Below are positions 17,185 to 55,385 of a DNA stretch of 64,000 nt, in pieces. Position 1 is the stretch's first letter. Every line of letters begins with the position of its first letter. Source of the stretch: a bacterium (lineage in GTDB: Bacteria > Sysuimicrobiota > Sysuimicrobiia > Sysuimicrobiales > Segetimicrobiaceae); NCBI GenBank assembly GCA_035945995.1, contig DASYZR010000166.1, positions 4,855 to 68,854 on the forward strand. Direction: 5' to 3'. The notes below the pieces were generated by a model, which saw nothing but the letters and a program-made list of their open reading frames with translations, did no database searches and was not told the origin of the DNA. A program made the translations under genes and the position numbers.

Positions 17185-17285
17185 CTGCCGACGGCGCGTT
17201 CGAGTTCCCCCTTGCCGGTCCGGACGGCGAGCCGATTGACCTGTGGCGGACCTGCCTGTCGCACGGGCTCACCGAGCTGCCGCCG

Positions 17286-18128
17286 ATGCGGGTCGACGCG
17301 GCCTCGCGCGCGTTCGAGATGACGCTGCCGGTCAACGGGGGACGGCCGCGCCTGATCCGGATCACCGAGGGCGGTCCCGGATTCGGCCTCGTACGGATTC
17401 TCGGGCCGGCCACGGGTCCGCGGATCGCCGGGCGGGTGGTCGCGGCGGTGCGCCACGTGCTGCGGCTCGACGAGCCGCTGGCCGAATTCTACGCGCTCGC
17501 GGCGGACGATCCCGATCTCGCCTGGGCGTGCGCCGGCGCGGGGCGGCTGATCCGCAGCCCCACCGTGTTCGAAGACGTCGTCAAGACGGTCTGCACGACG
17601 AACTGCTCGTGGGCGCTCACGCGCCGGATGGTGACGGCGCTCGTGGAGCACCTCGGCGCGCCCGTTCCCGGCGCGCCCGTCCGTGGGTGGATCGGCCGGG
17701 CGTTTCCCTCGCCGGCGGCGATGGCGGCGGCGCGGCCGGCCTTCTACAAGAACGTCGTCCACGCCGGCTACCGCGGACCGTACCTCTTGGCGCTGTCACG
17801 CCGCGTCGCGCGCGGCGAGGTGGACCTGGAAGCGCTCGGCCGCCGTCCCGGCACGCCCGGGGCCCTGACGGACGAGGAGGTGGCCGAGCGCCTCGGGGAC
17901 CTCCCCGGCGTCGGGCCGTACGCGGTCGCCCACATCATGCTGCTCGTGGGACGATACTCGCGCCTCGTCTTCGACTCGTGGACACGGCCGGCGTTCGCCC
18001 GCCTCTCAGGACGCCGGCGGCAGGTCGCGGATCGGACTATCGCCAGGCGATTCCGTCGCTACGGCCGGTACGCCGGACTGGCGTTCTGGCTGTACCTCAC
18101 GCGGCACTGGGTCGAGCCGGCATCGTGA
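17286..18128 (+). CDS. DNA-3-methyladenine glycosylase II / HhH-GPD base-excision repair protein (AlkA-like)
   Basis: HhH-GPD motif region (LGDLPGVGPYAVAHIMLL). Conserved-looking in-frame sequence upstream (...DLWRTCLSHGLTELPP) suggests the true start may be an upstream non-ATG codon. Confidence 0.75.
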   Translation: MRVDAASRAFEMTLPVNGGRPRLIRITEGGPGFGLVRILGPATGPRIAGRVVAAVRHVLRLDEPLAEFYALAADDPDLAWACAGAGRLIRSPTVFEDVVKTVCTTNCSWALTRRMVTALVEHLGAPVPGAPVRGWIGRAFPSPAAMAAARPAFYKNVVHAGYRGPYLLALSRRVARGEVDLEALGRRPGTPGALTDEEVAERLGDLPGVGPYAVAHIMLLVGRYSRLVFDSWTRPAFARLSGRRRQVADRTIARRFRRYGRYAGLAFWLYLTRHWVEPAS

Positions 18129-18132
18129 AGAC

Positions 18133-18396
18133 CTAGGGTTCAACGGCCAGCGGCGGCCCAAGGAGCTCCATGCCGTGGGCGCGCCAGAGCGCCGGGTCCT
18201 GCGGCGGCATTGCGTTGGCCCTCGTGACTTCGCGGAAGAACGCTTCCATCTTGCCGGCGGGCGTAAACGCGATCAGGATTTTGCCGCGCGAGTCACCGAC
18301 GTGCGCCCAGACATGGGGCACCTCCCGCGGCGCAAGCACAGAATCGCCCGGCCGCAGCGTGAACCGTTCCTGTCTGAGCAGCGGGGGATTCCGTGC
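18133..18396 (-). pseudogene. cupin-domain gene remnant (C-terminal half only)
   Basis: The minus-strand frame reads LRPGDSVLAPREVPHVWAHVGDSRGKILIAFTPAGKMEAFF, which is cupin motif 2. A stop sits immediately upstream and no motif-1 half is present. Only 343 bp separate the flanking genes. Confidence 0.4.
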
Positions 18397-18471
18397 TCAC
18401 CGACGCTGTCCTGCCCGCCCAGGCGAAAAAACTGAAGAGGCCATCCCGCCGGCAACGGGGAAAGATGTAGA

Positions 18472-20580
18472 TTGATGCCCAAGACCGTTCACGTCATCCT
18501 GGCTTTCCATGCCCACGAACCGCTTTGGGACCTGCCCGCGCACCTGCAAAGCGCCGTCCCGGACATGCGCATCGCGCAGGCGGTGCCCCCGGAGAACTAC
18601 CTGCGGCGGCGGGCCAAAGAAGGCCGCAACATCTACCGCGATCTCATCGCGTTCGCCAGCGGGATGGGCGTCCGGGTGACGGTCGACATCTCGAACGATC
18701 TGTTCTTTCAGATCCGCACGATTCTCCCGCGCACGTTCGAAGAGCTGCGGCGCGCGTACCGCGATCATACGATCTATCCGCTGTACACAACCGCGCATCA
18801 CACGCACGCGGTGCTGCTCGAGCCGGGAGAGCTGGTCGAGGAGCTGCGCCTGAACCAGGAGGCCCTCCACGATCTCGTCGGCGCGCCCAAGCCGCGGCAC
18901 CGCGTGTTCTTCTTCACCGAATGCTCGGTGCACCCGCGGTTTGCGCCGGCCCTCGAGGACGCCGGCATCGACGCGATCGTCCACCCGCACCTGAGCAACC
19001 GCAAGGGCGTCTACACGACCTCCGATCCGTCGCACGACTACGTGCACCGCCCGTTTCTCATCGGGCGGCGGATCATCGCGCTGCCGCGGCACTTCCGCGT
19101 CTCGCAGGAGATCTGGCGCCCGGTCACCCGCATGTACCCGCAGGAGGTGCGCTCGCAGGGCTACATGATGGGCTCCTATTACGTGTTCGACACGGAGTAC
19201 CGCGAGCACCGCTACCTCGATTTTCCGATCGATCGCGCCCGCGGCGTCGAGGAGTACGCGACCACCCTCCGCGAGGCGCTGGCGGCCGCGCCGGACGGAG
19301 GCTTGATCCTGTACATTCAGGATCTCGAATTGATGGACTTCGGCGATGTCGCGCTCGACGTGCTGCAGGCGGCGTGGAAGCAGGTGCTCGGGTCGTCCGA
19401 CGCGACCGTCAATTTCTCCACGCCCGACGAGTATCTCGAGACGCTGCCCGGCCCCCCCGAAGCGCGCGTCGAGCACCAGGGCATGGGGTGGGCGCCGGAG
19501 ACCCGCGTGCTGCTCCGCTCGGACGGCCAGTACCCGCCGCTGTACGCGGGCGAGGCCGGGGGGGTCGACGTGGTGCCGGCGATCTTCCGGCCGCATCCGT
19601 TCATCTACTGGGAGCCCGGCAAGTACGTCGTGGGGCTGTTTGGATGGCTGCTGCGCGCGTTCGGGCTGCTGTCGCCCGTGGGCATCCACGCGTCGGTGCT
19701 CTGTGACGAGGGCTATCTGCTCTACCGCTTCCCGATCGAGAAGCGGATCGCGGTCGGCTTCCGCCTGCTCAAGCAGGCCGACAACTGGGGCTGGCAGCCG
19801 AGCGAGGCGCTCAACAAGCGGCCCTACCTGTACGGGCTCATGCTGGCCGACGCGCTCATGGTCATGCTGCAGTTCTATCCGGAGCGCTATCCGGCGACCG
19901 AAGACCGGGTCGACCCGCGGATTCTCGTCGGGCTCGGCCGGTTGCCGGAAGGCCTGCTCGACACGCGGATCGCGTATCTCCGCTTCGCGCTCGAACGGCT
20001 CCGTGAGGAGCGCCACGACTACGATCCGAGCGAGGCGTTCCGGCAGCTCGACTACGCGACGGACTTCCGCGACAAGGCGGGGCGCGGCGCGGAGCAGCTG
20101 CTCGACGCGTACCGCGCGCTCGACGAGGATTTCCGCAACGCGGCCCGCTGGCGGCGCGTGCTGCTCGAGGCGCGCGAGCACTGCCGCAACGTCTTTCTCT
20201 GTCTCGACCACGTCCAGCGGACGTGGATGGCGGCCGGCGACGTCGACTTCCTCATCGACGCGATGTACCGGTACCTGTACGACCTGTACCCGCCGCGTTT
20301 TCCGGAAATCCTGGACCAGGTGGACCGCGGGACCGCGGCCGAACGCGTCTATCTCGGCACCCGGCTGGTGCACTTCGCGATCCCCTCCGAGTCGCCCGTG
20401 GCCGGCCGTCCGCTGAGCGCGCTAACGGTCTCGCCCGACAGTCTCGTCATCGCGCTGCGCCGGGGCACGCGGATGCTGGTCCCCCGGGGCGACACCGTGC
20501 TGCACGGCGGCGACCACATCACCGTCGCCACGACCCGGGGAGACAGCGTGCGGCTGGACGACATCATCGCGCTCCGGTGA
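18472..20580 (+). CDS. GH57-like glycoside hydrolase domain protein fused to a C-terminal TrkA_C (RCK_C) domain
   Basis: 702-aa ORF with real-protein composition. N-terminal HxHxP-like motif (ILAFHAHEPLW), a YPLY region, FFFTECSV (GH57 nucleophile-Glu context) and QDLELMDFG (a DGEKFG-like region). The C-terminal about 80 aa match TrkA_C (GRPLSALTV...GDTVLHGGDHITV). Stop at 20580 lies 13 nt before glgE. Confidence 0.8.
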   Translation: MMPKTVHVILAFHAHEPLWDLPAHLQSAVPDMRIAQAVPPENYLRRRAKEGRNIYRDLIAFASGMGVRVTVDISNDLFFQIRTILPRTFEELRRAYRDHTIYPLYTTAHHTHAVLLEPGELVEELRLNQEALHDLVGAPKPRHRVFFFTECSVHPRFAPALEDAGIDAIVHPHLSNRKGVYTTSDPSHDYVHRPFLIGRRIIALPRHFRVSQEIWRPVTRMYPQEVRSQGYMMGSYYVFDTEYREHRYLDFPIDRARGVEEYATTLREALAAAPDGGLILYIQDLELMDFGDVALDVLQAAWKQVLGSSDATVNFSTPDEYLETLPGPPEARVEHQGMGWAPETRVLLRSDGQYPPLYAGEAGGVDVVPAIFRPHPFIYWEPGKYVVGLFGWLLRAFGLLSPVGIHASVLCDEGYLLYRFPIEKRIAVGFRLLKQADNWGWQPSEALNKRPYLYGLMLADALMVMLQFYPERYPATEDRVDPRILVGLGRLPEGLLDTRIAYLRFALERLREERHDYDPSEAFRQLDYATDFRDKAGRGAEQLLDAYRALDEDFRNAARWRRVLLEAREHCRNVFLCLDHVQRTWMAAGDVDFLIDAMYRYLYDLYPPRFPEILDQVDRGTAAERVYLGTRLVHFAIPSESPVAGRPLSALTVSPDSLVIALRRGTRMLVPRGDTVLHGGDHITVATTRGDSVRLDDIIALR

Positions 20581-20593
20581 GACGGTTGCCGGT

Positions 20594-22641
20594 ATGAGCC
20601 CGCGGACGCCTCGGCACGAGTCCGCCATGAAGGACCGACCCGGACGGGTCGCGATTGAGGGCGTGACGCCTGAGATCGACGGCGGGCGGTTCCCCGCGAA
20701 GCGGACCGCCGGGGACACCGTTGTCGTCGAGTGCGACGCGTTCGCCGACGGCCACGAGCTGCTGGCCGGTGTGCTGCGGTACCGGTGGGAGGGCGATGCC
20801 GTCTCGCGCGGGGGCTGGAGCGAGACGCCGCTCCTCCCGTTGGACAACGACCGCTGGCGGGGCATCTTTGTCGCGGCACGGGCCGGCCGGTACCGCTTCA
20901 CGGTGGAGGCGTGGGTCGATCCGTTTTCGACGTGGGCGCACGATCTCACCAGACGGGTCGAGGCGGGGCAGGACGTGCGGGTGGATCTGCGGATCGGCGC
21001 CGAGATGGTCCGGGCCGCGGCCGGGCGCGCGCCGAGCCGGCGGCGCGGGCCACAGACGCCCTCGGACCGTGCGCGGCTGACCGGGTGGGCCGGGCGTCTC
21101 GAGACGGGTGATGAGGAGGCGGTCCGGATGGCGCTCTCGGCGGAGCTGGCCGACACGATGCGCCGGCACCCCGCGCGGGACGGCGCGTCGCGCTACGCCC
21201 CCGAGCTCACCCTCGTCGTGGACCGTGAGCGCGCGCGCTTCGGCGCGTGGTACGAGATGTTTCCGCGGTCGACCTCGCCGGAGCCGGGCCGCCACGGCAC
21301 CTTTGCCGACTGCGAACGGCGCCTGCCGTACGTCGCCGGCATGGGGTTCGACGTGCTGTACCTGCCGCCGATCCATCCGATCGGCCGCGCGCACCGCAAG
21401 GGCCGCAACAACTCCGAGACGGCCGGTCCGGAGGACCCGGGGAGCCCCTGGGCGATCGGCGCCGCCGAAGGCGGCCACACCGCGATCCATTCCGACCTCG
21501 GGACGATCGACGATTTTCGCCGCCTCCTCGCGCGCGCCCGCGAGCACGGACTGGAGATCGCCCTCGATCTCGCGTACCAGTGCGCGCCGGACCATCCGTA
21601 CGTCCGCGAGCACCCGGAGTGGTTTCGCCGGCGGCCCGACGGCACCGTCCAGTACGCCGAAAACCCGCCGAAGAAGTATCAGGACATCTACCCGTTCGAC
21701 TTCGACTCGGACGACTGGCGGGGGTTGTGGAAAGAGCTCCTCGGCGTCGTGCGGTTCTGGATGCGCGAGGGCGTGCGCATTTTCCGCGTGGACAATCCCC
21801 ACACGAAGCCGTTCGCGTTCTGGCAGTGGTTGATCGCGGAGATCCACCGCACCGACCCCGACGTCATCTTCCTCGCGGAGGCGTTCACGCGCCCGAAGGT
21901 GATGTACCGGCTTGCGAAGGTGGGCTTCACGCAGTCGTACACCTACTTCACCTGGCGCACCACCAAGGCCGATCTGACGGCATACTTCACGGAATTGACC
22001 CGCCCCCCCGTGCGCGACTTCTTCCGGCCCAACCTCTGGCCCAACACGCCGGACATCCTCCACAAGTACCTCCAGGACGGGGGCCGGCCCGCGTTCGCGG
22101 TGCGCCTCGTGCTCGCGGCCACGCTCGGGGCGAACTTCGGCATCTACGGGCCGGCCTTCGAGCTCTTTGAGCACCGGTCGGCCGCCCCGGGAAACCCGCC
22201 CCCGGCCAGCGAGGAGTACCTCAACGCCGAGAAATACGAGATCAAGCGCTGGGACCTCGACCGGCCGGACAGCCTGCGCGGCCTGATCGCCCGCGTCAAC
22301 GCGATCCGGCGGGCCCACCCGGCGCTGCAGCGCGACGACACGCTCGTGTTTCATTCGGTGGACAACGACCAATTGCTCTGCTACAGCAAGACGGCGCCGG
22401 CTGGCGGCGCGGGGCAGGCAGGCGGCGCGGCGGTGCTCGTCGTCGTGAACCTCGATCCGGCGTTCGCACAGTCGGGTTGGACCACGCTGTCGCTGCCCGC
22501 CCTCGGCCTGGGTCCGGACGACCCGTATGCCGTGACGGACCTGCTGACGGACGCGCGCTACACCTGGCGCGGCCGGCGGAACTACGTCGTGCTGCGTCCG
22601 GCCGAGCAGCCGGCGCACATCTTTCGCCTGGACCGGGCGCC

Positions 22642-22645
<4 letters not shown>
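20594..22645 (+). CDS. glgE: alpha-1,4-glucan:maltose-1-phosphate maltosyltransferase
   Basis: Classic GlgE signature ([52 protein letters not shown]). 683 aa. Confidence 0.92.
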
Positions 22646-26127
<3,482 letters not shown>

Positions 26128-26131
<4 letters not shown>

Positions 26132-27981
26132 GCGACGGCACGCCGGGCGCCGTCCTGCTCCCCGGCGGCCGCTGCCGGTTCCGCGTTTGGGCGCCGCGGG
26201 CCAGCGCGGTCGAGGTGTACCTGGTCACCCCGCGCAGCCGGCGCGTCGCGCTCGCATCCTGCGACGGGGGCTACTACGAGGCCGTGGTCCCGGATGTCGA
26301 GGCCGGGGCGCGATACCGGTACGTGCTCGACGGCACGGTCGATTACCCCGATCCGGCGTCCCGCCTGCAGCCGGACGGCGTCCACGGGCCGTCGCAGGTC
26401 GTCGATGCGGCGTTTGCGTGGAAGGACGCCGGGTGGCGCGGGCTCCCGCTCGCAGAGTACGTCATCTACGAACTGCACGTCGGCGCGTTTTCCGCGGCGG
26501 GCACGTTCGACGGAGTGATGGGCGAGCTCGAGGCGCTCGCCGACCTCGGGGTGACCGCGATCGAGCTGATGCCGGTGGCGCAGTTTCCCGGCCGGCGCAA
26601 CTGGGGATACGACGCCGTGTATCTCTACGCCGTGCATCCGGAGTACGGCGGGGCGGAGGGGCTGAAGCGCCTCGTGGACGCCTGCCACCGCCGGGGGCTC
26701 GCCGTTGTGCTCGACGTCGTCTACAACCACCTCGGTCCCGAAGGGAACTACCTCGGAGCATTCGGCCCGTACTTTACGGACCGCTACCGGACGCCCTGGG
26801 GGGACGCGATGAACTTCGACGGCCCCGACAGCGATGCGGTGCGGCAGTTCGTGGTCGACAACGCGTGCTGGTGGGTCGAGGAGTTTCACGTCGACGCGCT
26901 GCGCCTCGACGCCCTCCACGCGGTCGTCGACCAGTCCGCGCGCCACATCTTCGAGGAACTGGCGGGCGCCGTCCACGACCGTGCGCGGGCGGCCGGCCGC
27001 GCGGTGCACGTGATCGCGGAGAGCGGTCTCAACGATCCGCGCCTGCTGCGGCCGCCGGACCGCGGCGGGTACGGCCTCGACGCGGACTGGAACGACGATT
27101 TTCACCATGCGCTCCACGCGCTGCTCACGGGCGAGCGAATGCGCTACTACATGGACTTCGACGGCGCCGCGGACCTGGCGCGGGCGTGGACCGACGGGTT
27201 CGTGCTCGCGGGCCGGTACTCGCCCTATCTCCGGCGCCGGTTCGGGGCGCCGTCGCTCGATATCCCGGCCGAGCGGTTCGTCGTCTTCGCCCAGAATCAC
27301 GACCAGGCCGGCAACCGGGCGCTCGGCGAGCGGCTGACGGCGCTCGTCGGGTTCGAGGCGCTCAAACTGGCGGCGGGGACGGTGTTGCTCTCGCCGTTCG
27401 TGCCGCTCCTCTTCATGGGCGAAGAGTATGGGGAGACGGCGCCGTTTCTCTACTTCACCGACCACGGGGACCCGGGCCTCGCGGCGGCCGTCCGGCAGGG
27501 CCGGTACGAAGAGTACCCGGAGAGTGAGCCGCCCGATCCCCAGTCGCCCGAGACGTTCGAACGGTCGCGGGTCGCGCGCGGCCACGCGCGCGAGCCGCGC
27601 CACCGCGTGCTGCTCGATCTCTATACCGCCCTGATCCGGCTGCGCAAGACGGATCCCGCGCTGGCCAACCTCAGCAAGGGAACCATGGACGTCCGCGTCT
27701 GGGACGACGCCCGCGTTCTCCTGGTCCGCCGCTGGCACGAGCGGAGCGCCGTCGTCGCCGCGTTCAATTTCTCCGCGTCTCCGGCGATGGTCGAGGCGGC
27801 GGTGCCGGCCGGCCCGTGGAAACTCGTGATCGACTCCGCGGACGCGCGGTGGGCCGGCCCCGGCCGCGCGGCGCCCGAGATCCTCGAGTCCCGCGGCACG
27901 GTGATGCTCACGCTCGCACCGTGGTCCTTCGCGCTGTTCGGGACGGACGTGGACCCGGGCGCCGAAGGAGGCCGCCCGTGA
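26128..27981 (+). CDS. treZ: malto-oligosyltrehalose trehalohydrolase (GH13)
   Basis: N-terminal E-set region (RFRVWAPRA) and a GH13_10 catalytic core (YELHVGAFSAAGTF, GVTAIELMPVAQFPGRRNWGYD, VLDVVYNHLGPEGN). The ATG overlaps the treS-mak stop as ATGA. Confidence 0.85.
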
Positions 27982-29036
27982 CCCCGGAACGCAAACCCGT
28001 TGTCGCGCTGACGTTCGGCGATCCGGCCGGGATCGGGCCGGAGCTCATCGCAAAACTCGTGGCGCGCGGCGATCCGGTGCGGCAGGCGACCGCCGTCGTG
28101 GTCGGCGACCGGTGGGTGTGGGACGACGGGCAGCGCGTGGCCGGCACGCGGACGGCGCTCCACGAGATCGCGTCCATCGCCGAGGCGCGGACCCGGGAGA
28201 AGCCGGGCGCACCGTTCTTCCTCCCGATCGACACCGTGACGCCGCACGACGTGCGGCGCGCAACGGCCACCGCCGGGGGCGGCGCCTCGGTCCTCCGCGC
28301 GCTGGCGATCTGCCTGGATGCCGCGCGCGCCGGCCAGATCGACGCGATCTGCTTTGCGCCCCTCAACAAGCTCGCGATGAAACAGGGGGGACTCGCCTTC
28401 GAGGACGAGCTGCACTTCTTCGCCGACTATCTCGGGGTACGGACCTACTTCTGCGAGCTCAACGTGCTGGACCCCGACGGCCGCGGGACAGGCGGGCTGT
28501 GGACCACGCGCGTCACGTCGCACATTCCGCTCCGGGACGTCGCCGCAGCACTCAGCCGCGACCGCATCAAGGACGCGGCCCGGCTGCTCTATCGCGCGCT
28601 CGAGGCGGCGGGGGTCGGGCGGCCGCGGGTCGCCGTGGCGGCCCTCAACCCGCACGCCGGCGAGGGCGGCACCTGCGGGCGGGAAGAGATCGACATCATC
28701 GAGCCGGCGGTGCGCGAGGCGCGCGCCGAAGGCCTCCCGATGGACGGACCGTTTCCGGCCGACACGATCTTTTTGCGGGCCCGCGCCGGTCTCTACGACG
28801 GCATTCTCACGATGTACCACGACCAGGGGCAGATCGCGATCAAGTTGATGGGCTTCGAGCGCGGGGTGACCGTCCAGGGCGGCCTGCCCGTCCCGATCAC
28901 CACGCCGGCGCACGGTACCGCGTTCGACATCGCCGGCCAGAACAAGGCCGGCGTAGAGGCGCTCACCCGGGCCTTCGCGATCGCCTGCCGGATGGGCGCC
29001 TCCAGCCGTGCCGCGGGAACCGTGCGCGCACCCTGA
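27978..29036 (+). CDS. PdxA family dehydrogenase (4-hydroxythreonine-4-phosphate dehydrogenase-like)
   Basis: PdxA signature regions (ALTFGDPAGIGPE, ALNPHAGEGG, YHDQGQIAIK). GTG start overlaps the treZ stop as GTGA. Confidence 0.85.
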   Translation: MTPERKPVVALTFGDPAGIGPELIAKLVARGDPVRQATAVVVGDRWVWDDGQRVAGTRTALHEIASIAEARTREKPGAPFFLPIDTVTPHDVRRATATAGGGASVLRALAICLDAARAGQIDAICFAPLNKLAMKQGGLAFEDELHFFADYLGVRTYFCELNVLDPDGRGTGGLWTTRVTSHIPLRDVAAALSRDRIKDAARLLYRALEAAGVGRPRVAVAALNPHAGEGGTCGREEIDIIEPAVREARAEGLPMDGPFPADTIFLRARAGLYDGILTMYHDQGQIAIKLMGFERGVTVQGGLPVPITTPAHGTAFDIAGQNKAGVEALTRAFAIACRMGASSRAAGTVRAP

Positions 29037-29076
29037 GACGCGGGTCGGCGGCGCCTTACCAGCGGGCCCGGCGTTC

Positions 29077-29709
29077 TTAGCCCAACGCCGCTTCCAACGT
29101 CCGGTTCAGTCCCGCCAATCGCTCTGCCGGCAGTCGCGCGATGAATTTATGCAAGGCCGCCGCGAGATCGGGAGCGTCGTGCTCCATCTCCTGCAGCTTG
29201 CCGGTCGATAGACGGTAGAACGTGCTGGGAGAGAGCGCAACCACCGACGCGGTGCGCACACCGCCGATGTACATGGGCACCTCGCCCACGACCGTGCCGC
29301 CGCGCATCGTCCGCAGACGCGTGATCCGGCCATCGGGCAACTCAACCTGGGCCGTCAACTGACCGGACTCGATGAAGTACATCGCGTCGGACGGATTGCC
29401 CTGCCGCACGAGATAGTCGCCTTCGCCCACCTGGTGCTTCTCGAGATACGTCATCAACCGGTAGTTGACGACGAACAGCACAATCGCCACCACCACGCCC
29501 ATGCCCACACCTGCCAGAAAGTTCACCGCGCCGACGGCGGCGAGAATCAGCAGCACCAGCACATAATCGGTGCGCGGCAGTTTGAACCACGCGTCGTACA
29601 GCCACTCCACGAGGAACGAGAGGCCGAGAAAAAAGAGAAAACCGCCCAGTACCGGTTTGGGGAAGAATGACAGGAGCCCTGCGCCGAAGAAGAGCACAGC
29701 GGCGCACAC
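29077..29709 (-). CDS. membrane protein with a C-terminal cyclic-nucleotide-binding domain, probably a truncated SulP-like transporter
   Basis: The N-terminal about 100 aa contain two or three TM helices. The C-terminal cNMP-binding fold reads GEGDYLVRQGNPSDAMYFIESG...RTMRGGTVVGE. The hydrophobic frame stays open upstream of the GTG start with no upstream ORF, suggesting the N-terminal transporter part has been lost. Confidence 0.6.
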   Translation of the reverse strand: MCAAVLFFGAGLLSFFPKPVLGGFLFFLGLSFLVEWLYDAWFKLPRTDYVLVLLILAAVGAVNFLAGVGMGVVVAIVLFVVNYRLMTYLEKHQVGEGDYLVRQGNPSDAMYFIESGQLTAQVELPDGRITRLRTMRGGTVVGEVPMYIGGVRTASVVALSPSTFYRLSTGKLQEMEHDAPDLAAALHKFIARLPAERLAGLNRTLEAALG

Positions 29710-31991: not shown

Positions 31992-34115
31992 TTAGCCCGT
32001 GGCGTCCGCCACCCCGGCGTGGGTCGTCTGCTCCCAGGGTGTCCCGGCGGGGAGCGCGAGCTCCCAGCGGAGCACCAGCATCGCCCCCTGGTGATTCCGC
32101 TCGAGCCCGGCCTCCGAATTCGAGATCGTGAAGACGGGGAGGCTCCAGACGTCCGCGGGCCGCTCGAGGGCGAACGCAAGCCTGAGGCCGGAGTACGTCT
32201 CGCCGGCGTGCACGCCGGTGGTCGGGGGGAGATCCGCCGGCTCCCACAACGAGACGCGCGTCCCGTCCGCTGCGGCCCACACCTGCTCCGGTCCCCCGAA
32301 CAGCCCGAGGCTCCACTGTTCCGCGAGCACGGCGCGCAGGACGCCCGGCCCATCCCACATGAGACGCACGGCGTGGGTGAGCCCCCGGCGGCGTATGTCC
32401 ACCTCGATCCGGCGCCCGAGGGTCACCTGCCCCTCGCCAACCGGCGCGCGCCGTGTCAGCGCGGCCGCGGCGCCCGTCCCGGTCTCCTCGAGACGCCACG
32501 CGTACCGGCCGGAGCCGAATCCGCCCAGATCCTCCGCGGTGTCGCGCCACGCTTCGTCGCGCAACACCTCCGCCGGCCAGAGCCACGTTCGCATGGTCGC
32601 CCGGCGCACGCGATCGTACATGAGCAGCCGTTCGAGGCCCGGTTCCTTGGCGTGGTCGCCCGCCGCGTGAATCGAGACGGCTCCCTCGATCGGAGGCGCC
32701 TCGTGGCGCACGCGCGCATGGTAGGCTTCCGCCCGCCTCGTCAGCACGTTGCCGAGATGACGCCGCGCGGTCCGATCGTCCCACTCCACGACGCTGCCGC
32801 CCCGCGCCGGGTCCACCGTGCACACGTCCAGCTGGGTGGCCAGGTACAGTTCGGGCTGCCCGTCCCCGTTGAGGTCTTCGGCCGACGTCTCGGCGTACGG
32901 TTCCGGGTGCCGGATGAGGTCCGCGTCCGCTTCCGCGGCAATGAGGCGCTCAAACGCCGCGCTCCGAATGTGCGGCAGATAGATGCCGCCGAAGACGCCG
33001 TGCCAGTAGGTGCAGTTGCACTCGCCGCTCCAGAGCTCATCGAGCGCCCGCTCCCGGTCCGGCCCGGGCGGCATCGCGTGGACCTTGCGTCCGGCGCGGA
33101 GCGCCAGGTGGTGCAGCGTGTTGGCCTCCGGATATCGCACGAGGAAGTGCCGCCAGAATCCGCCGCGCACCAGCGACGCGAGGTCCTCGCGGCCCCCGGT
33201 TTCGAGGTCGTGCCGGAAGGTCGCCCGCGCCTCGGCGCGCTGCGGCGGGAGCGCCCATTCCGCCATCTCGTCGTACGTGGCCGTCGGCAGGTAGATCGCG
33301 CCGGCCGGGTCGTGGGTGCGCCGGTAGTCGCCCGGAGGCACCACGTCGATCCACGGCGTCGCCTCCAGCGTGTCGAAGAACCGATCCACCCACCCGCGCT
33401 CCCAGCAGTGCGCGTACGTGGTCGGCCACATCCCGAACTTCTCCCCGTCGTCGCCCATCAACGCGAGATCGAGCGGCGCGTCGCGGCCCTCCGGCCGGAC
33501 CTCCGTCTCCGCGAGCGTGCGGAGGTAGGCCACGACGTCCTCCGGCGACACCCACGGAATGAGATACCGCAGGCGCCGGAGGCTCGGGAACAGCGCGAGC
33601 GAGACGCCCTCCTCTTCGGTCACGTAATAGCCGAGCAGTTGTCGGTCTTCGAGCCCGACGGCGTGGAAGTGCGAGTCATCGACGATGGTGTACTTCACGC
33701 CGGCCTCGCCGAGCGGGCGCGCCAGATGCGGCTCCCAGACGCGCTCGGCCAGCCATAGCCCGTCCGCGGAGTACCCGAACCCGTCCCTGATCGCGCGCGT
33801 CATCTTCACGATCTGGCCGCGCTTGTCCGCGTCGGGCACGATCGGGAGGATCGCCTCGTAGTAGGCGCCGGTGAGCATCTCGATCTGTCCGCGCGCCACG
33901 AGCGCCCGCAGCCGCGCGATGAGCTCGGGGCGGTGCGCGCGCAGCCAGTCGAGCAGCGGGCCGGAATAATGCAGCGCGAGGCGGATGCCGGGGTGGCGCT
34001 CGAGCGAGGCGATCATCGGCGCGTACGATCGCTCGGTCGCCTCCGCGAAGACGTGGTCGAAGTTGCCGACCGGCTGGTGGTTGTGCAGCGCCAGGGCGAG
34101 TGCGAGCCGATGCAT
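31992..34115 (-). CDS. glycoside hydrolase family 57 protein (4-alpha-glucanotransferase / alpha-amylase type)
   Basis: Canonical GH57 motifs LALHNHQP, GQIEMLTGAYYEAILP and LMGDDGEKFGMWP. 707 aa. Confidence 0.9.
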   Translation of the reverse strand: MHRLALALALHNHQPVGNFDHVFAEATERSYAPMIASLERHPGIRLALHYSGPLLDWLRAHRPELIARLRALVARGQIEMLTGAYYEAILPIVPDADKRGQIVKMTRAIRDGFGYSADGLWLAERVWEPHLARPLGEAGVKYTIVDDSHFHAVGLEDRQLLGYYVTEEEGVSLALFPSLRRLRYLIPWVSPEDVVAYLRTLAETEVRPEGRDAPLDLALMGDDGEKFGMWPTTYAHCWERGWVDRFFDTLEATPWIDVVPPGDYRRTHDPAGAIYLPTATYDEMAEWALPPQRAEARATFRHDLETGGREDLASLVRGGFWRHFLVRYPEANTLHHLALRAGRKVHAMPPGPDRERALDELWSGECNCTYWHGVFGGIYLPHIRSAAFERLIAAEADADLIRHPEPYAETSAEDLNGDGQPELYLATQLDVCTVDPARGGSVVEWDDRTARRHLGNVLTRRAEAYHARVRHEAPPIEGAVSIHAAGDHAKEPGLERLLMYDRVRRATMRTWLWPAEVLRDEAWRDTAEDLGGFGSGRYAWRLEETGTGAAAALTRRAPVGEGQVTLGRRIEVDIRRRGLTHAVRLMWDGPGVLRAVLAEQWSLGLFGGPEQVWAAADGTRVSLWEPADLPPTTGVHAGETYSGLRLAFALERPADVWSLPVFTISNSEAGLERNHQGAMLVLRWELALPAGTPWEQTTHAGVADATG

Positions 34116-50547: not shown

Positions 50548-52152
50548 CTACTTGCCGATCGTCACATCGCCGAGCACGGGGTACGTCGAGAAGTTGTATT
50601 TCGTATCGTGCACGGTGTTGCGGATCACCCAGACGGACAGCTCGTCCACGAGCGGGATCGAGACGGCGTCGTTCATGAGGATCGTCTCCATCCGGTCGTA
50701 GATCACGCGCCGCTTCGCCGGATCGAACGCCGCGCGGCCATCGGCGATCAGCCTGTCCACTTCCGGATTCGCGTAGCACGACCAGTTGAAGTTGCCGCCG
50801 ACGTTTTGCGAGGCGAACAGCGCGTACAGCCCGTCCCAGTCCGTGGAGCGCAGGAACATCACCGGGCCGTTGGTGGCGCAGTGGTAGTTGTCCTCGTACC
50901 ACGGCGGCCGCGCCTGGCTCTTGATCTTGGCGTCGACGCCCAGCTGGAGCAATTGCCCCTGCAGCAGCTCGATCTCGGGCAGGTTGCCGCTGCCGTAGTT
51001 GATCGAATTGATCTCGATCGTGAGCGGCTGGCCGTTCTTGGTCCGGATGTTGCCGGGGCCCATCTTCCACCCGGCTTCGTCGAGCAGCGCCGCCGCCTTC
51101 TTCGGATCGTACTTGTACTTGGCGCACAGCGCCGGGGTGCCGAGCGTGTGCTGGGTGAGGGGCGCGCACGCCGCGGTGCCGGTTCCCCGGAAGACCGAGT
51201 CGACGAACGCGGCGCGATTGAGCCCGTAGAGGAGCGCCTGCCGCACCTTCACGTCGTTGGTCGGCGGCCTGCGGACGTTCAGGAGCCAGATCCGCGGCGC
51301 GCCGGGATACGGGTTCTTCTCCACGCGCAGGGCCTTGTTGCCCTCCAGGCGCCGGAGCACCGAGGCCGGCGTGTTGAGGAAGCTGATCATCTGCGTCTCG
51401 CCCGATTCCACCGTCGTGACGCGCGTGCCGGACTCCGGGATGAACTTCCACACGATCCGGTCGACGGCCGCCGGGCCCTGGCGGGTGCTGTACGGCGGCT
51501 TGCGGTTGTACTCGGCGTTGCGGACCAGCGTGACGTGGTCCTTGGCGACGTACTCGCTGACGGTGAACCGTCCGCTCCCCACCGGCTTCTGGTTGACCGC
51601 GTCGCCCTGCCCCGGCGTGGTCTTCGGCGAAATGAGCGACAGGGTCCCCCCGGAGACGTAGGTGAGGAAGGGCGCGTAGGGTTCTTTGAAGTTCACCCGG
51701 ACCGTGTAGGGATCCACGACCGTGGACCCGGCGTAGCCCGTCAGCGCGAGCAGCGCGCCGCCCGCTTTGAAGTTCGGGTTGACGATGCGGTCGAAGTTCC
51801 ACTTCACGGCCGCCGCGTCGACCGGAGCGCCGTCCGAAAACTTCGCGTCCTTCCGCAGCGCGAACGTGAACGACTTGCCGTCGGGCGCGGCCTTGTACCC
51901 GGTGGCCAGCCACGGGAGCAGCTTCCCGCCCAGGTCCTGGTACAGCAGGTTCTCCGCGACGTCCGTGATGATCTGGTAGGTCACGGCCGACGGCGACGCG
52001 GCCGGATCGAGCGTGGGCGGCTCCTGGTCCAGGCCGACGGTCAGCGTGCCCGGCGCGGCGCCGAGCGCCGGCGGACCGGCGCCGACGGCGGCGAGGGCGA
52101 GCAGCGTGAGGCAGAGCACGACGTGTCGCCACGCCGCGGGCAATCGACTCAA
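50548..52152 (-). CDS. ABC transporter substrate-binding protein, family 5
   Basis: Signal peptide (LSRLPAAWRHVVLCLTLLALAAVGA). Putative TTG start with a GGGAGG ribosome-binding site 7 nt upstream, overlapping the galT-like stop as TTGA. The listed ORF extends spuriously to 52263. Confidence 0.85.
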   Translation of the reverse strand: MSRLPAAWRHVVLCLTLLALAAVGAGPPALGAAPGTLTVGLDQEPPTLDPAASPSAVTYQIITDVAENLLYQDLGGKLLPWLATGYKAAPDGKSFTFALRKDAKFSDGAPVDAAAVKWNFDRIVNPNFKAGGALLALTGYAGSTVVDPYTVRVNFKEPYAPFLTYVSGGTLSLISPKTTPGQGDAVNQKPVGSGRFTVSEYVAKDHVTLVRNAEYNRKPPYSTRQGPAAVDRIVWKFIPESGTRVTTVESGETQMISFLNTPASVLRRLEGNKALRVEKNPYPGAPRIWLLNVRRPPTNDVKVRQALLYGLNRAAFVDSVFRGTGTAACAPLTQHTLGTPALCAKYKYDPKKAAALLDEAGWKMGPGNIRTKNGQPLTIEINSINYGSGNLPEIELLQGQLLQLGVDAKIKSQARPPWYEDNYHCATNGPVMFLRSTDWDGLYALFASQNVGGNFNWSCYANPEVDRLIADGRAAFDPAKRRVIYDRMETILMNDAVSIPLVDELSVWVIRNTVHDTKYNFSTYPVLGDVTIGK

Positions 52153-53231
52153 GGCGCACCTCCCTGGGCTCCGGTGGGACTGGCCACCGGGATCTTCGTC
52201 TCCCGGAGATACCGGGCCGCGTCCTCGGGCGGCACCGTATTGATGTAGAACCCGGACCCCCACTCGAACCCCGCGACCTGCGAGAGGCGCGGCAGCACCT
52301 CGATGTGCCAGTGGTAGAAGTGGTCAACCCTGGCGTCGTACGGGGCGGTGTGAATGATGTAGTTGTACGGCGGGTTGGCGAGACAGGCGTGGATCCGTCC
52401 CAGGACGGCCTGCACGGTCTCGGCGAGCGGCCGCAACTGCACGTCTTCGAGCGCGCCGAAGCTCGCGGTGTGGCGGCGGGGAAGGATCCAGAGCTCGAAC
52501 GGGCACCACGACGCGTACGGCGCGAAGGCGACGAACTCGTCGTTCTTCCACACGAGCCGCCGACCGTTCCCTTCCGGCCCTTCTCCCACCTCCTGACGGA
52601 GGATGTCGCAGAAGACGCAGCGGCCTTCGCGCGCGAAGTAGGCCTGGGCGCCCTCCAGTTCTTCCTCCGCCCGTTTCGGCACGATCGGCATGGCGATCAA
52701 CTGCGAGTGCGGATGCGCGAGCGACGCGCCCGCCTGCCGGCCATGGTTGCGGAACAGCAACAGGTACTTGAAACGCGGGTCGCCGTCGAGATCGCGGTAG
52801 CGCTCGCGGTACATCCACAGGACCGACGCGAACTGATCCGGACTCATCACCCCGGGATGCGCCGCGTGCTCGGGCGTCTCGATGATGACCTCGTGGGCGC
52901 CGACGCCACCCATGCCTTCGAACATGCCCTCCCAGGTGACGTCTGTCGATCCCTCGATGCGGAGCGCCGGGTACTTGTTCGGGACGACCCGCACCTGCCA
53001 GCCCGGCGTGTCGGGTGCGGTCCCCGGCCGGCGAATCGCGACGATCTCCGGCGGGGTGGTGCTCTCGTGGCCTTCGCAGAACGGACACGTCGATGACGGC
53101 GCGGCGAGCGGCTCGTTCTTGGCGAAGTCGCTCGGGCGGGCCGCCCGCTCGTTGGCGACGATCACCCACCGGCGGGTGATCGGATCTTTGCGCAGCTCGG
53201 GCACGGCATCCCTCCGTGGTTGGGACGGCAT
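52149..53231 (-). CDS. galT: galactose-1-phosphate uridylyltransferase family protein (GalT-like, HIT-like)
   Basis: HPH active-site motif (AHPHSQLIAMP) and Zn-binding Cys/His (CPFCEGH). Confidence 0.85.
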   Translation of the reverse strand: MPSQPRRDAVPELRKDPITRRWVIVANERAARPSDFAKNEPLAAPSSTCPFCEGHESTTPPEIVAIRRPGTAPDTPGWQVRVVPNKYPALRIEGSTDVTWEGMFEGMGGVGAHEVIIETPEHAAHPGVMSPDQFASVLWMYRERYRDLDGDPRFKYLLLFRNHGRQAGASLAHPHSQLIAMPIVPKRAEEELEGAQAYFAREGRCVFCDILRQEVGEGPEGNGRRLVWKNDEFVAFAPYASWCPFELWILPRRHTASFGALEDVQLRPLAETVQAVLGRIHACLANPPYNYIIHTAPYDARVDHFYHWHIEVLPRLSQVAGFEWGSGFYINTVPPEDAARYLRETKIPVASPTGAQGGAP

Positions 53232-53249
53232 CGGGTGCGGCGCGGAGGC

Positions 53250-54737
53250 CTAGGTGGGCGCGCCGGCGCGTTTCGCGGCGATCGCGCGCCGGTACGTCTC
53301 CACGTACCGCCCGGCCGCGCGCCCCCACGAGAAATCTTGCCGCATTCCGGTCTGCATGAGACGCGTCCACACCCCCCGGTTGCGGAACGTCGCCAGCGCG
53401 CGCTCGAGCGTCGCGCGCAGCGCCTCCGCGGCGTAGGCCTCGAAGACGAAGCCGTTGGCCGTCCCGCGGGCGACGGCATCCGGCGCGGCGTCCACGATGG
53501 TGTCGGCCAGTCCGCCGGTCTTGCGCACGACCGGGACCGTGCCGTAGCGTAGACTGTACAGCTGATTCAGACCGGACGGCTCGTACCGCGACGGCATGAG
53601 GAACATGTCCGCGCCGGCCTCGATCCGGTGGGCCAACGCGTCGTCGAACCCCAGGGTGACCGAGACGCGGCCGCGATGGCGCTCGTGGAACGCTTGGAAG
53701 ATCTCGTGATACTTGGGCTCGCCGGTGCCGAGCAGCGCGAACTGCGCTCCGCGCGCGACGAGCCGGTCGAGGACGGCGGCGACGAGGTCGAGGCCTTTCT
53801 GGTCGGCGAGCCGCGTGATCATGCCGACTGTGGGGACGTCCGGGGTCTCGCCGAGGCGCAGGGTGCGCTGCAGGTCCTGCTTGCAGACCGCTTTGCCCGC
53901 GAGGTCGTCCGGCGTGTAGCGCGCCGCGAGGTGCCGGTCGGTCGACGGATCCCATGCGCTGTAGTCCACGCCGTTGAGAATGCCGGTGAGATCGGCGGCG
54001 CGGTCCCGCAGCACGCCGTCCAGGCCGCAGCCGAACTCCGGCGTCTGAATCTCGCGGGCGTACTGTTCGCTCACGGTACTCAGCAGGTCGGCGAAGACCA
54101 GCCCGCCTTTGAGGAGGTTCACCTTGCCGAAAAACTCGAGGCCCTGCGGCGTGAAGACCCGCCGCGCGAGGCCGGTGACCGGGAAACGGTCGGGTGGAAA
54201 CAGCCCCTGGTATGCGAGGTTATGAATGGTAAACAGGGTCGCCGTGCGCTCGAGGCCGGGGGCCCGGGGCTCCTCGCGCAGCCACACCGGCAGCAGGGCC
54301 GTCTGCCAGTCCTGGCAATGCAGGACGTCGGGGCTCCATCCGAGGTGCCGGAGCAACGCGAGCACGCCGCGGCCGAACACGGTAAACCGCTCGAGGTTGT
54401 CCTCGTAGTCGGTCCCGCCCTCGCCGTAGAGGCCCGGGCGTCCGAACGACGGGTCGTGCGCGATGAGATACACCGGGACGGCGGTCTCCGGCAGCCGCCC
54501 TTCGAGCAGTGTGACGTCGGCCGAGGTACCGCCGAGTGATACGGCGGCGCGGCCGATCGTTTGAAAGGCGAAGCGGGTCCGGTCGATGGACCGGTAGCCG
54601 GGCAGCACGATCCGCACGTCGCAGCCCCGCTCGGCCAGCGCCCGCGGCAGCGCGCCCGCCACGTCGGCGAGCCCCCCGGTCTTGGCGAACGGCACCGCCT
54701 CCGACGTGCAGAAACAAACGCGGACGTTCTCGTTCAC
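53250..54737 (-). CDS. glgA: glycogen synthase (GT5, ADP-glucose type)
   Basis: KTGGLADVAGALPRAL motif near the N-terminus. GTG start overlaps the upstream small-gene stop as GTGA. 495 aa. Confidence 0.9.
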   Translation of the reverse strand: MNENVRVCFCTSEAVPFAKTGGLADVAGALPRALAERGCDVRIVLPGYRSIDRTRFAFQTIGRAAVSLGGTSADVTLLEGRLPETAVPVYLIAHDPSFGRPGLYGEGGTDYEDNLERFTVFGRGVLALLRHLGWSPDVLHCQDWQTALLPVWLREEPRAPGLERTATLFTIHNLAYQGLFPPDRFPVTGLARRVFTPQGLEFFGKVNLLKGGLVFADLLSTVSEQYAREIQTPEFGCGLDGVLRDRAADLTGILNGVDYSAWDPSTDRHLAARYTPDDLAGKAVCKQDLQRTLRLGETPDVPTVGMITRLADQKGLDLVAAVLDRLVARGAQFALLGTGEPKYHEIFQAFHERHRGRVSVTLGFDDALAHRIEAGADMFLMPSRYEPSGLNQLYSLRYGTVPVVRKTGGLADTIVDAAPDAVARGTANGFVFEAYAAEALRATLERALATFRNRGVWTRLMQTGMRQDFSWGRAAGRYVETYRRAIAAKRAGAPT

Positions 54738-55165
54738 GGCAGTCGCACCCGTATCGATCCGGCCGCGGCGCGGCCGTCGCCGGCGAGGTACGTCCCCGGC
54801 CGGAGAAACGTGACGTCGAGCGTGCCGCTGCTCCCATCCCGGAGCACGCCGGTGGAGGTCTCGATCCCGGGTCCCGTGATGGTCAACGCGCGCGGCACCC
54901 CCGACGTGTTGCGGACAACGAACCGCACCGAGCCCGGAAGCAGCAGCATGACGGCCGGATCGATGACGTCCGCGCCGAGGGTGATCTCGATTCGCTGTGA
55001 TTCGGCGGCTCTGACGGGCGGTTTCCAGACGCCGCGGCCGGCGGCGAGCGCCGCGAGGCCGACAATGCCCGCGCACAGGACGCCGCGGAGCACGCCGCGG
55101 AGCACGCGCACTGCCGGCCGCCGCACCCGCCGCTCCGCCGTGGCCGATACTTGATGCGGAGCGCT
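54734..55165 (-). CDS. hypothetical membrane-anchored protein with a beta-sandwich (cupredoxin-like) C-terminal domain
   Basis: GTG start. N-terminal TM helix (VLCAGIVGLAALAAG) and a beta-rich C-terminus (IEITLGADVIDPAVMLLLPGSVRFVVRNTS...). A 12-bp tandem repeat encodes VLRGVLRGVL. Confidence 0.5.
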   Translation of the reverse strand, partial: SAPHQVSATAERRVRRPAVRVLRGVLRGVLCAGIVGLAALAAGRGVWKPPVRAAESQRIEITLGADVIDPAVMLLLPGSVRFVVRNTSGVPRALTITGPGIETSTGVLRDGSSGTLDVTFLRPGTYLAGDGRAAAGSIRVRLP

Positions 55166-55385
55166 CACGGCCTCGTGGCTTCGTCGCCACGCGGGGGCGG
55201 TCCTCCACCATTCACCATGCGCCAGTGTCGAGGTTGTTCCCATGGCAACCCGGCCGCAGCGTCCCACTCCGGACTGAGACGCGCCCGGAGAGCAGGAGGT
55301 TCTCCCCGCCGGACGTAAGGATACGCCGCGGCTCGGCGCGCGGGCAGGCAAGACAGGGGCCGGGGGGCCACCGGGGGGACCAGTC

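Follow-up and report, generated by a model that had tools for sequence, protein, structure and literature searches.

The DNA analyzed here, a 64,000-nucleotide stretch (the window) of contig DASYZR010000166.1 from a bacterium of the Segetimicrobiaceae (assembly GCA_035945995.1), carries a tight operon, X-glgE-treS/mak-treZ, whose first gene joins a catalytic region of the glycoside hydrolase family 57 (GH57) fold, designated X, to a C-terminal TrkA_C/RCK_C domain. Coordinates are collected in Table 1. An initial annotation made from the sequence had placed this gene 13 nt before glgE, and it does head the glgE operon at that distance. The open reading frame (ORF) spans 18472-20580 on the plus strand, with a TTG codon at 18472 one codon 5' of an ATG at 18475. 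Homologs of X::RCK_C start MPK..., and a protein already deposited from a metagenome-assembled genome, HEV2359801.1 ("TrkA C-terminal domain-containing protein [bacterium]"), is identical to the 701-residue product; the gene is therefore taken as 18475-20580. Residue numbers throughout follow the 702-residue numbering of the initial annotation, counted from TTG 18472. The treS-mak fusion likely starts at GTG 22642, with a 4-nt overlap with the glgE stop. A scan of 17800-29400 for promoters and terminators was uninformative apart from finding no plus-strand terminator within the operon. Close relatives (L001-L005) keep both the fusion and the linkage to glgE; the full order X::RCK_C-glgE-treS/mak-treZ is seen in L001, L002, L004 and L005, and the sequence of L003 ends inside glgE.

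The Pfam model Glyco_hydro_57 (PF03065) matches residues 9-173 of X at 32.9 bits against a cut-off of 21.2 (E 5.5e-8), a match that spans only model positions 1-173 of 291; many unfused homologs of X have no precomputed PF03065 match. TrkA_C (PF02080) matches residues 633-691 at 47.7 bits (E 1.4e-12), also above its cut-off and consistent with an RCK_C fold, so that both halves of the fusion first described by eye are recovered by hidden Markov models (HMMs). In the predicted model, a (beta/alpha)7 barrel is followed by a helical domain, the arrangement expected of GH57. The linker to RCK_C, at about residues 620-630, is modeled with lower confidence (pLDDT 59). Identity to characterized or solved GH57 enzymes is 12-16%, and a PDB sequence search with the X protein and with the family profile returned matches to RCK_C domains only and no GH57 chain. 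NCBIfam recognizes the TrkA-like tail only, with no match to the maltooligosyltrehalose synthase TreY (TIGR02401). By its fold and predicted catalytic residues, X is a retaining glycosidase or transglycosylase of the GH57 kind, and its family is small and isolated in sequence. Having the GH57 fold and no TIGR02401 match, it is not a member of TreY, and any likeness to TreY is one of functional analogy only.

Table 1. Features of the window discussed in the text, followed by the solved GH57 structures with which X was compared (value recorded for each in the last column).
Feature	Position	Strand	Notes
X::RCK_C gene	18475..20580	+	701 aa from ATG; operon's first gene
GH57-type (beta/alpha)7 catalytic barrel	18484..19506	+	about residues 5-345; includes CSR1-like motif
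CSR1-like motif F-H13-A-H15-E-P17	18508-18522	+	
E150 codon, predicted catalytic nucleophile	18919..18921	+	FFFTEC motif
D284-L285-E286, predicted acid/base Asp and conserved Glu of CSR4-like YIQDLELMDFG	19321..19329	+	motif and secondary structure
All-helical C-terminal enzyme domain	19570..20325	+	about residues 367-618; secondary structure of predicted model
TrkA_C/RCK_C domain	20362..20577	+	residues 631-702
glgE (maltose-1-phosphate maltosyltransferase)	20594..22645	+	13 nt 3' of X; Pfam GlgE_dom_N_S, GLGE_C, Alpha-amylase
treS-mak fusion (trehalose synthase and maltokinase)	22642..26031	+	TIGR02456 911 bits, TIGR02457 383 bits
treZ (maltooligosyltrehalose trehalohydrolase, GH13 and CBM48)	26074..27981, start uncertain	+	TIGR02402 708 bits, cut-off 538.8
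pdxA, last co-directional gene, context only	27984..29036, start uncertain	+	Pfam PdxA; same order in relative L083
Canonical three-domain GH57 gene, 4-alpha-glucanotransferase/AmyA type	31992..34115	-	PF03065, AmyA-A_glucT_m, AmyA-gluTrfs_C; 1K1W E 8.5e-115
GalT-like nucleotidyltransferase (GalP_UDP_transf/DUF4921)	52149-53249	-	Pfam
GT5 glycogen synthase glgA, second alpha-glucan locus with GalT-like gene	53250-55211, start uncertain	-	Pfam
Solved structure 9JLR			amylopullulanase, 25.9
Solved structure 7E1Y			amylopullulanase, 25.2
Solved structure 2B5D			AmyC, 23.7
Solved structure 1UFA			branching enzyme, 23.1
Solved structure 1K1W			4-alpha-glucanotransferase, 22.3

A word-indexed search placed 384 clusters in family X, about 20 of them with TrkA_C and the others about 630 residues long and unfused, annotated as "hypothetical protein" or "glycoside hydrolase". 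Of 1.84 billion representatives searched exhaustively with an HMM, 121 match at E<=1e-3, about 11 being full-length, and classical GH57 proteins appear only as weak partial matches. The small number of matches, together with the lack of any GH57 match in the PDB by sequence, marks X as a small and isolated offshoot of the GH57 fold. In a tree built from the catalytic domain, the 15 fused proteins, which have 54-92% identity to the query, group as one clade, and their RCK_C domains share 15 invariant positions, a pattern that fits one fusion event maintained by selection. The closest sequence relative of this RCK_C domain is the TrkA-type domain of Thermotoga TM1088; homolog searches with the domain alone returned only fragments of the same fused proteins. 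Like the initial annotation, which knew of no GH57 enzyme with an RCK_C module, we found no description of family X or of a GH57-RCK_C fusion in the literature searched. The protein is already public, though with no annotation beyond "TrkA C-terminal domain-containing protein". For an enzyme of the GH57 fold, its fusion to a sensor is without precedent, and its specificity is probably new.

Conservation at the predicted catalytic site was read from an alignment of 73 homologs. All motifs quoted in the initial annotation occur in the translated ORF, and H13, H15, E16, P17, W19, D284, E286, D289, F290 and G291 are invariant in all 73 sequences, as are about 55 further positions. The predicted nucleophile, E150, is conserved in 72 of them, and the remaining sequence has Asp. 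When the X family is aligned by hhalign with the canonical GH57 protein of the window, FHAHEP falls on HNHQP and GLFFTEC on GLWLAER, the Glu of which is equivalent to E123, the nucleophile in the WLTER motif of 1K1W; the probability attached to this placement of E150 is only 34-82%. The D284-L-E286...F290-G291 segment lies at the end of strand 277-284, matching the placement of DDGEKFG in 1K1W, and repeats the GH57 D-G-E pattern with a two-residue insertion (DLELMDFG vs. DGEKFG). Conserved sequence region (CSR) 1 reads HEP where canonical GH57 has HQP. The CSR5-like motif A436-D-N-W-G-W441, which takes the form A(C/D)NWGW across the family, is without the Asp of canonical CNDxYWH, and A436, G440, E445 and K449 are invariant in the helical domain. 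Regions 1, 2 and 5 can still be recognized, in altered form. The site differs from that of classical GH57, also in its loss of the CSR2 Glu, yet is rigidly conserved, which suggests an active enzyme with distinct specificity. The worry that a degenerate acid/base motif might mark a non-catalytic binding protein is not borne out, given this strict conservation.

To our knowledge, maltooligosyltrehalose, the substrate of TreZ, is made by TreY only. The window encodes TreZ, and neither TreY nor GlgB nor any GH57 branching enzyme occurs in it. Neighborhoods of X, covering 10 kb to either side of each gene, were assembled for 80 loci of species-representative genomes by tblastn and ORF clustering, and compared with 80 TreZ loci from metagenomes, in which TreY was called by TIGR02401 (938 bits). 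In 28 of the metagenome loci treZ is flanked by 3 kb or more on each side, and in 24 of these 28 TreY occurs within 10 kb, usually adjacent or one gene off; X was found in none of the 80 TreZ loci. TreY, in turn, was found in none of 87 X sources (86 loci and the window), where 26 TreY queries gave cross-hits of at most 60 bits on other GH13 genes. For well-flanked loci, TreY accompanies TreZ in 0 of 18 cases with X against 24 of 28 without it (Fisher P = 2.6e-9, shared ancestry ignored). Gene order points the same way. A recurrent metagenome operon reads glgE-treS-mak-glgB-treZ-(GH57+DUF3536)-treY; the tight operon (GH57+DUF3536)-treZ-X of L038 has X in the TreY position, and L084 encodes GlgB, TreZ, the GH57+DUF3536 protein and X, so that of the common operon TreY alone is missing.

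Two kinds of partner recur beside X. A TreZ equivalog, with NCBIfam scores of 670-737 and above cut-off, is found near X in 28 of the 80 loci, from Bacillota, Thermodesulfobacteriota, Elusimicrobiota, Pseudomonadota and the lineage of the window, in differing arrangements; the gap between X and TreZ is below 1.1 kb in 21 of 29 loci (these 28 plus the window). A short GH57 protein of 410-430 residues is encoded directly upstream of X in 37 of the 80, mainly in Dehalococcoidia but also in other Chloroflexota, Elusimicrobiota and Melainabacteria, often with overlapping stop and start. No X locus of the 80 has both. The short GH57 could be a GH57-type analog of TreZ or a partner subunit of X. It occurs as one or two genes upstream of unfused X and retains canonical HxxQP, GQIEF and PPEM motifs (examples at L016:8756-9979, L035:914-2206 and L081:7462-10001). 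The initial annotation had tied X to the GlgE pathway, a link that the operon of the window supports; across the family, the conserved partner is TreZ or the short GH57 rather than GlgE, and the consistent absence of TreY had been missed.

Other trehalose and glucan genes are found near X: TreT-like GT4 in 39 of the 80 loci, GlgC-like in 17, GlgE/TreS in nine and OtsA in six, with OtsB, GlgP-like, MscS and GH65 genes likewise seen. Since X co-localizes with every type of trehalose-forming gene (TreZ, TreT-like, OtsAB, TreS), its substrate might instead be trehalose, with X serving osmolyte turnover as trehalase or trehalose:glucan transglucosylase, and an osmotic sensor would make sense on a trehalose-consuming enzyme. 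We consider this quite improbable: it leaves the specific loss of TreY beside TreZ unexplained, and we know of no GH57 enzyme that cleaves alpha,alpha-1,1 bonds. As a separate observation, the X cluster of the Chloroflexota locus L081 is followed, at L081:12255-21899, by genes for a TetR regulator and two MscS-type channels, then otsA, otsB, a further TreT-like GT4 gene, a TrkH fragment and a P-type ATPase for cations, and the gene set around X there has the appearance of an osmoadaptation island.

Fused forms of X are known from three lineages, that of the window and the deeper lineages L084 (glgB-X::RCK_C with the divergent pair treZ / GH57+DUF3536) and L086 (cdaA-DHH-amylase-glgB-X::RCK_C). 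In all three, X adjoins a glucan-building gene, glgE or glgB, and unfused X adjoins TreZ or the short GH57; for three lineages only, the association of the fusion with glucan-building genes is suggestive. These arrangements bear on the proposal that X is a branching enzyme of the GlgE pathway that replaces GlgB in the lineage of the window, where glgB is indeed missing from the operon. In both L084 and L086 a GH13 glgB gene runs into X, its stop overlapping the X start, and this translational coupling disfavors a branching role. Moreover, a true GH57 branching enzyme with BE_C stands beside X in 11 of the 80 loci, all with unfused X; Pfam finds no BE_C/DUF1957 domain in X, and hhalign of the X family against branching-enzyme-type GH57 proteins from related loci gives nothing (probability 0.2%). 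We regard this role as improbable. Also improbable is that X is a 4-alpha-glucanotransferase recycling short maltooligosaccharides left by TreZ or GlgE. It would be redundant with the canonical GH57 gene nearby, which has the three Pfam domains and the 1K1W match given in Table 1 and which is syntenic in relatives (L002 and L005); X itself has neither the middle nor the C-terminal AmyA domain (AmyA-A_glucT_m and AmyA-gluTrfs_C are both absent by Pfam), and the exclusion of TreY is left unexplained. Of the two functions first suggested for X, branching is therefore weakened by the overlapping GlgB and the separate GH57 branching enzymes, while a transferase in the broader sense fits a TreY-like role. 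The original observation is confirmed, and its interpretation is partly supported.

The GH57+DUF3536 protein (about 810 residues, without an NCBIfam name) lies between treZ and treY in 22 of the 80 TreZ loci (e.g., L089:11822-14245) and co-occurs with X in L008 (6216-8756), L009, L038 (5472-8081) and L084 (11886-13865); in L008 and L009 it forms a trio with a short GH57 and X, followed by otsAB in L008. These proteins resemble X in being uncharacterized GH57 relatives within TreZ operons, but they belong to the Pfam DUF3536 family, match PF03065 over its full length, and co-occur with TreY. Because they do not exclude TreY, they presumably have another role than X, probably as debranching or trimming partners of the TreY/TreZ route. 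In L059 (7729-9969) and 11 other Bacillota loci, the gene directly upstream of X encodes a GH13 protein of about 745-747 residues with CBM48 and an N-terminal extension of about 200 residues. Its scores for TreZ, GlgB and GlgX all fall short of the cut-offs, which places it outside the assigned GH13 groups; it is possibly the TreX-like debrancher of these loci.

Taken together, the evidence makes it very probable that X is an active alpha-glucan/trehalose enzyme of the GH57 fold and that its RCK_C module is regulatory. Its activity may be approached by elimination. The TreX role falls to the GH57+DUF3536 protein (in Bacillota, to the GH13/CBM48 protein of about 747 residues) and the TreZ role to TreZ or the short GH57, which leaves the TreY role for X. 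From gene neighborhood and elimination we tentatively favor X as a non-homologous analog of maltooligosyltrehalose synthase, a reading that we hold to be somewhat short of probable. In a rival reading, X is a TreX-like hydrolase of the amylopullulanase, debranching or alpha-amylase type that would cut stored glucan, by trimming or debranching, into maltooligosaccharides for TreZ- or GlgE-linked steps; this we judge unlikely.

As a TreY analog, X would act on an alpha-glucan or maltooligosaccharide at its reducing end, cleaving the terminal alpha-1,4 bond there and, by way of a glycosyl-enzyme intermediate, re-attaching the terminal glucose in alpha,alpha-1,1 linkage, after which TreZ would release trehalose. 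Both TreY and GH57 families are retaining, so that X could, on chemical grounds, carry out the intramolecular transglycosylation that TreY does. TreS, Mak and GlgE would run in the opposite direction, and the whole trehalose-glucan cycle would thus be encoded in one operon. With both directions co-transcribed, the direction of flux would have to be decided post-translationally. The RCK_C domain probably dimerizes, as in other RCK proteins, and could bind a small ligand, e.g., K+ or another osmotic or energy signal; the ligand-bound domain would switch X on or off and so gate the conversion of storage glucan into osmoprotectant trehalose, at the step that commits glucan to this route.

Several points weigh against this proposal. 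The activity of X is inferred solely from gene neighborhood and elimination. The 37 loci, mainly of Dehalococcoidia, in which X has a short GH57 and no TreZ require either a second assumption, that the short GH57 is a TreZ analog, or a broader role for X. The operon of the window lacks both glgB and the GH57+DUF3536 gene, and X could replace either one here. The absence of TreY holds for the 10 kb on either side of each gene, and a copy of TreY may lie farther off in the same genomes; the Fisher probability given above likewise takes no account of phylogenetic non-independence. Many canonical operons run both directions without RCK_C, so regulation of this kind is not obligatory. At the catalytic site, the acid/base residue is assigned by motif and secondary structure rather than by superposition; hhalign against three GH57 groups aligns only the N-terminal half of the X family and leaves the acid/base region outside. 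The canonical CSR2 Glu (GQxE) is not kept and aligns with Tyr or Pro (IYPLY) in X. This loss, together with the low identity to characterized GH57 enzymes, would suit a catalytically dead protein that binds glucan or regulates other enzymes, but the predicted nucleophile, the acid/base residue and about 65 other positions are conserved across phyla in the manner typical of an active site, and a dead protein is extremely improbable.

A last point of this kind concerns the ligand. RCK_C domains are established receptors of cyclic di-AMP (c-di-AMP) (PMC8517857, PMC10117811), and for those of the KtrA/KhtT/CpaA/CpeA type PMC10117811 quotes a binding signature from Schrecker et al. 2019, (I/L)(I/L)X2DX1RX5N(I/L)(I/L). 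In this quoted form, the signature is absent from all 15 fused proteins, even when three substitutions are allowed. In L086:3968-12205, cdaA (CdaA_N and DAC domains) and a DHH/DHHA1 phosphodiesterase-like gene lie directly upstream of amylase-glgB-X::RCK_C on the same strand, and L008 has a cdaA homolog within 10 kb of unfused X. Two such co-occurrences among 86 X loci (L001-L086) are near chance, and with the quoted signature missing, c-di-AMP was set aside as the ligand and is kept as a lead only. It is equally possible that the RCK_C domain responds to K+ or another osmotic or energy signal.

A wider hypothesis follows, which as a whole we consider doubtful: that X founds a group of GH57-fold maltooligosyltrehalose synthases, that with the short GH57 as TreZ analog it forms an all-GH57 route from glucan to trehalose in Dehalococcoidia and Elusimicrobia, and that in the lineage of the window an ionic or nucleotide signal, such as K+ after osmotic upshift, acts on it through RCK_C and so directly turns storage glucan into trehalose. 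Stress survival depends centrally on the interconversion of trehalose and alpha-glucan by GlgE, TreS and TreY/TreZ, a pathway that in actinobacteria is a drug target. Many TreZ-bearing anaerobes of the Bacillota, Elusimicrobiota, Thermodesulfobacteriota and the uncultured lineage of the window have no TreY beside treZ, which would leave a hole in the pathway. If the hypothesis is true, a GH57-fold enzyme fills this hole with an activity new to the GH57 clan, and hundreds of "hypothetical" or "TrkA C-terminal domain" annotations would be corrected. X::RCK_C would then be the first RCK_C-gated carbohydrate-active enzyme, and RCK_C sensing, known from K+ transport and from a single transcription factor, would also serve the direct allosteric regulation of metabolic enzymes.

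Other parts of the window were examined for context. An Rfam search of the whole window gave no match, and the idea of a riboswitch or structured RNA in the region of about 340 nt 5' of X was dropped. A 101-residue ORF there (18170-18475) fails the GC3 pattern and was for that reason rejected as a gene. A 68-residue ORF on the minus strand within the same gap (18133-18339; …PREVPHVWAHVGDSRGKILIAFTPAGKMEAFF…), without a Pfam match, resembles by eye the C-terminal part of a cupin-type protein and is possibly a gene remnant. Further upstream, two long plus-strand ORFs overlap in different frames, neither with a Pfam family. The 297-residue frame (17243-18136) is rich in Arg, Gly and Ala, as is typical of shadow frames in high-GC DNA; the 280-residue ATG frame (17286-18128) looks like a real protein and matches in position a 320-residue gene of the relative L083. 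At the second alpha-glucan locus, the pairing of the GalT-like gene with glgA suggests a role in forming nucleoside diphosphate glucose for glucan synthesis, instead of or beside GlgC. The GalT-like family also precedes GT4-GH57 genes in L081.

Several known systems invite comparison. TreY (GH13_26; TIGR02401), like X, is found beside TreZ, often with a debranching-type enzyme and with GlgE, TreS and Mak genes, and the two are mutually exclusive in that position. Their folds and families are unrelated, TreY being a (beta/alpha)8 GH13 enzyme and X a (beta/alpha)7 GH57 enzyme. Relative to the solved GH57 enzymes of Aquifex (9JLR), Staphylothermus (SmApu, 7E1Y), Thermotoga (AmyC, 2B5D), Thermus (TT1467, 1UFA) and Thermococcus litoralis (1K1W), X is without the branching-enzyme and AmyA accessory domains, and none of the five bears the RCK_C domain that X has. 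In TM1088A/B (3JXO/3L4B), TrkA (4G65), CpaA (4YS2), KhtT (7AGV) and BusR (7WJG), the RCK_C domain is found on a channel, transporter or transcription factor; in X it is carried by a soluble carbohydrate-active enzyme, with no RCK_N domain and without the c-di-AMP signature in its quoted form. Alpha-glucan enzymes under the control of second messengers are known elsewhere: c-di-GMP binds GlgX in Streptomyces (PMC9530166), and c-di-AMP with SbtB acts on glycogen metabolism in cyanobacteria (PMC8654305). These systems work by direct binding to a GH13 enzyme or through a separate PII-like protein, and have no fused RCK_C sensor. What they share with the role proposed for X is post-translational control, by a small ligand, of the mobilization or synthesis of storage glucan, and in the Streptomyces GlgX system the glucan then feeds trehalose formation by TreY/TreZ.

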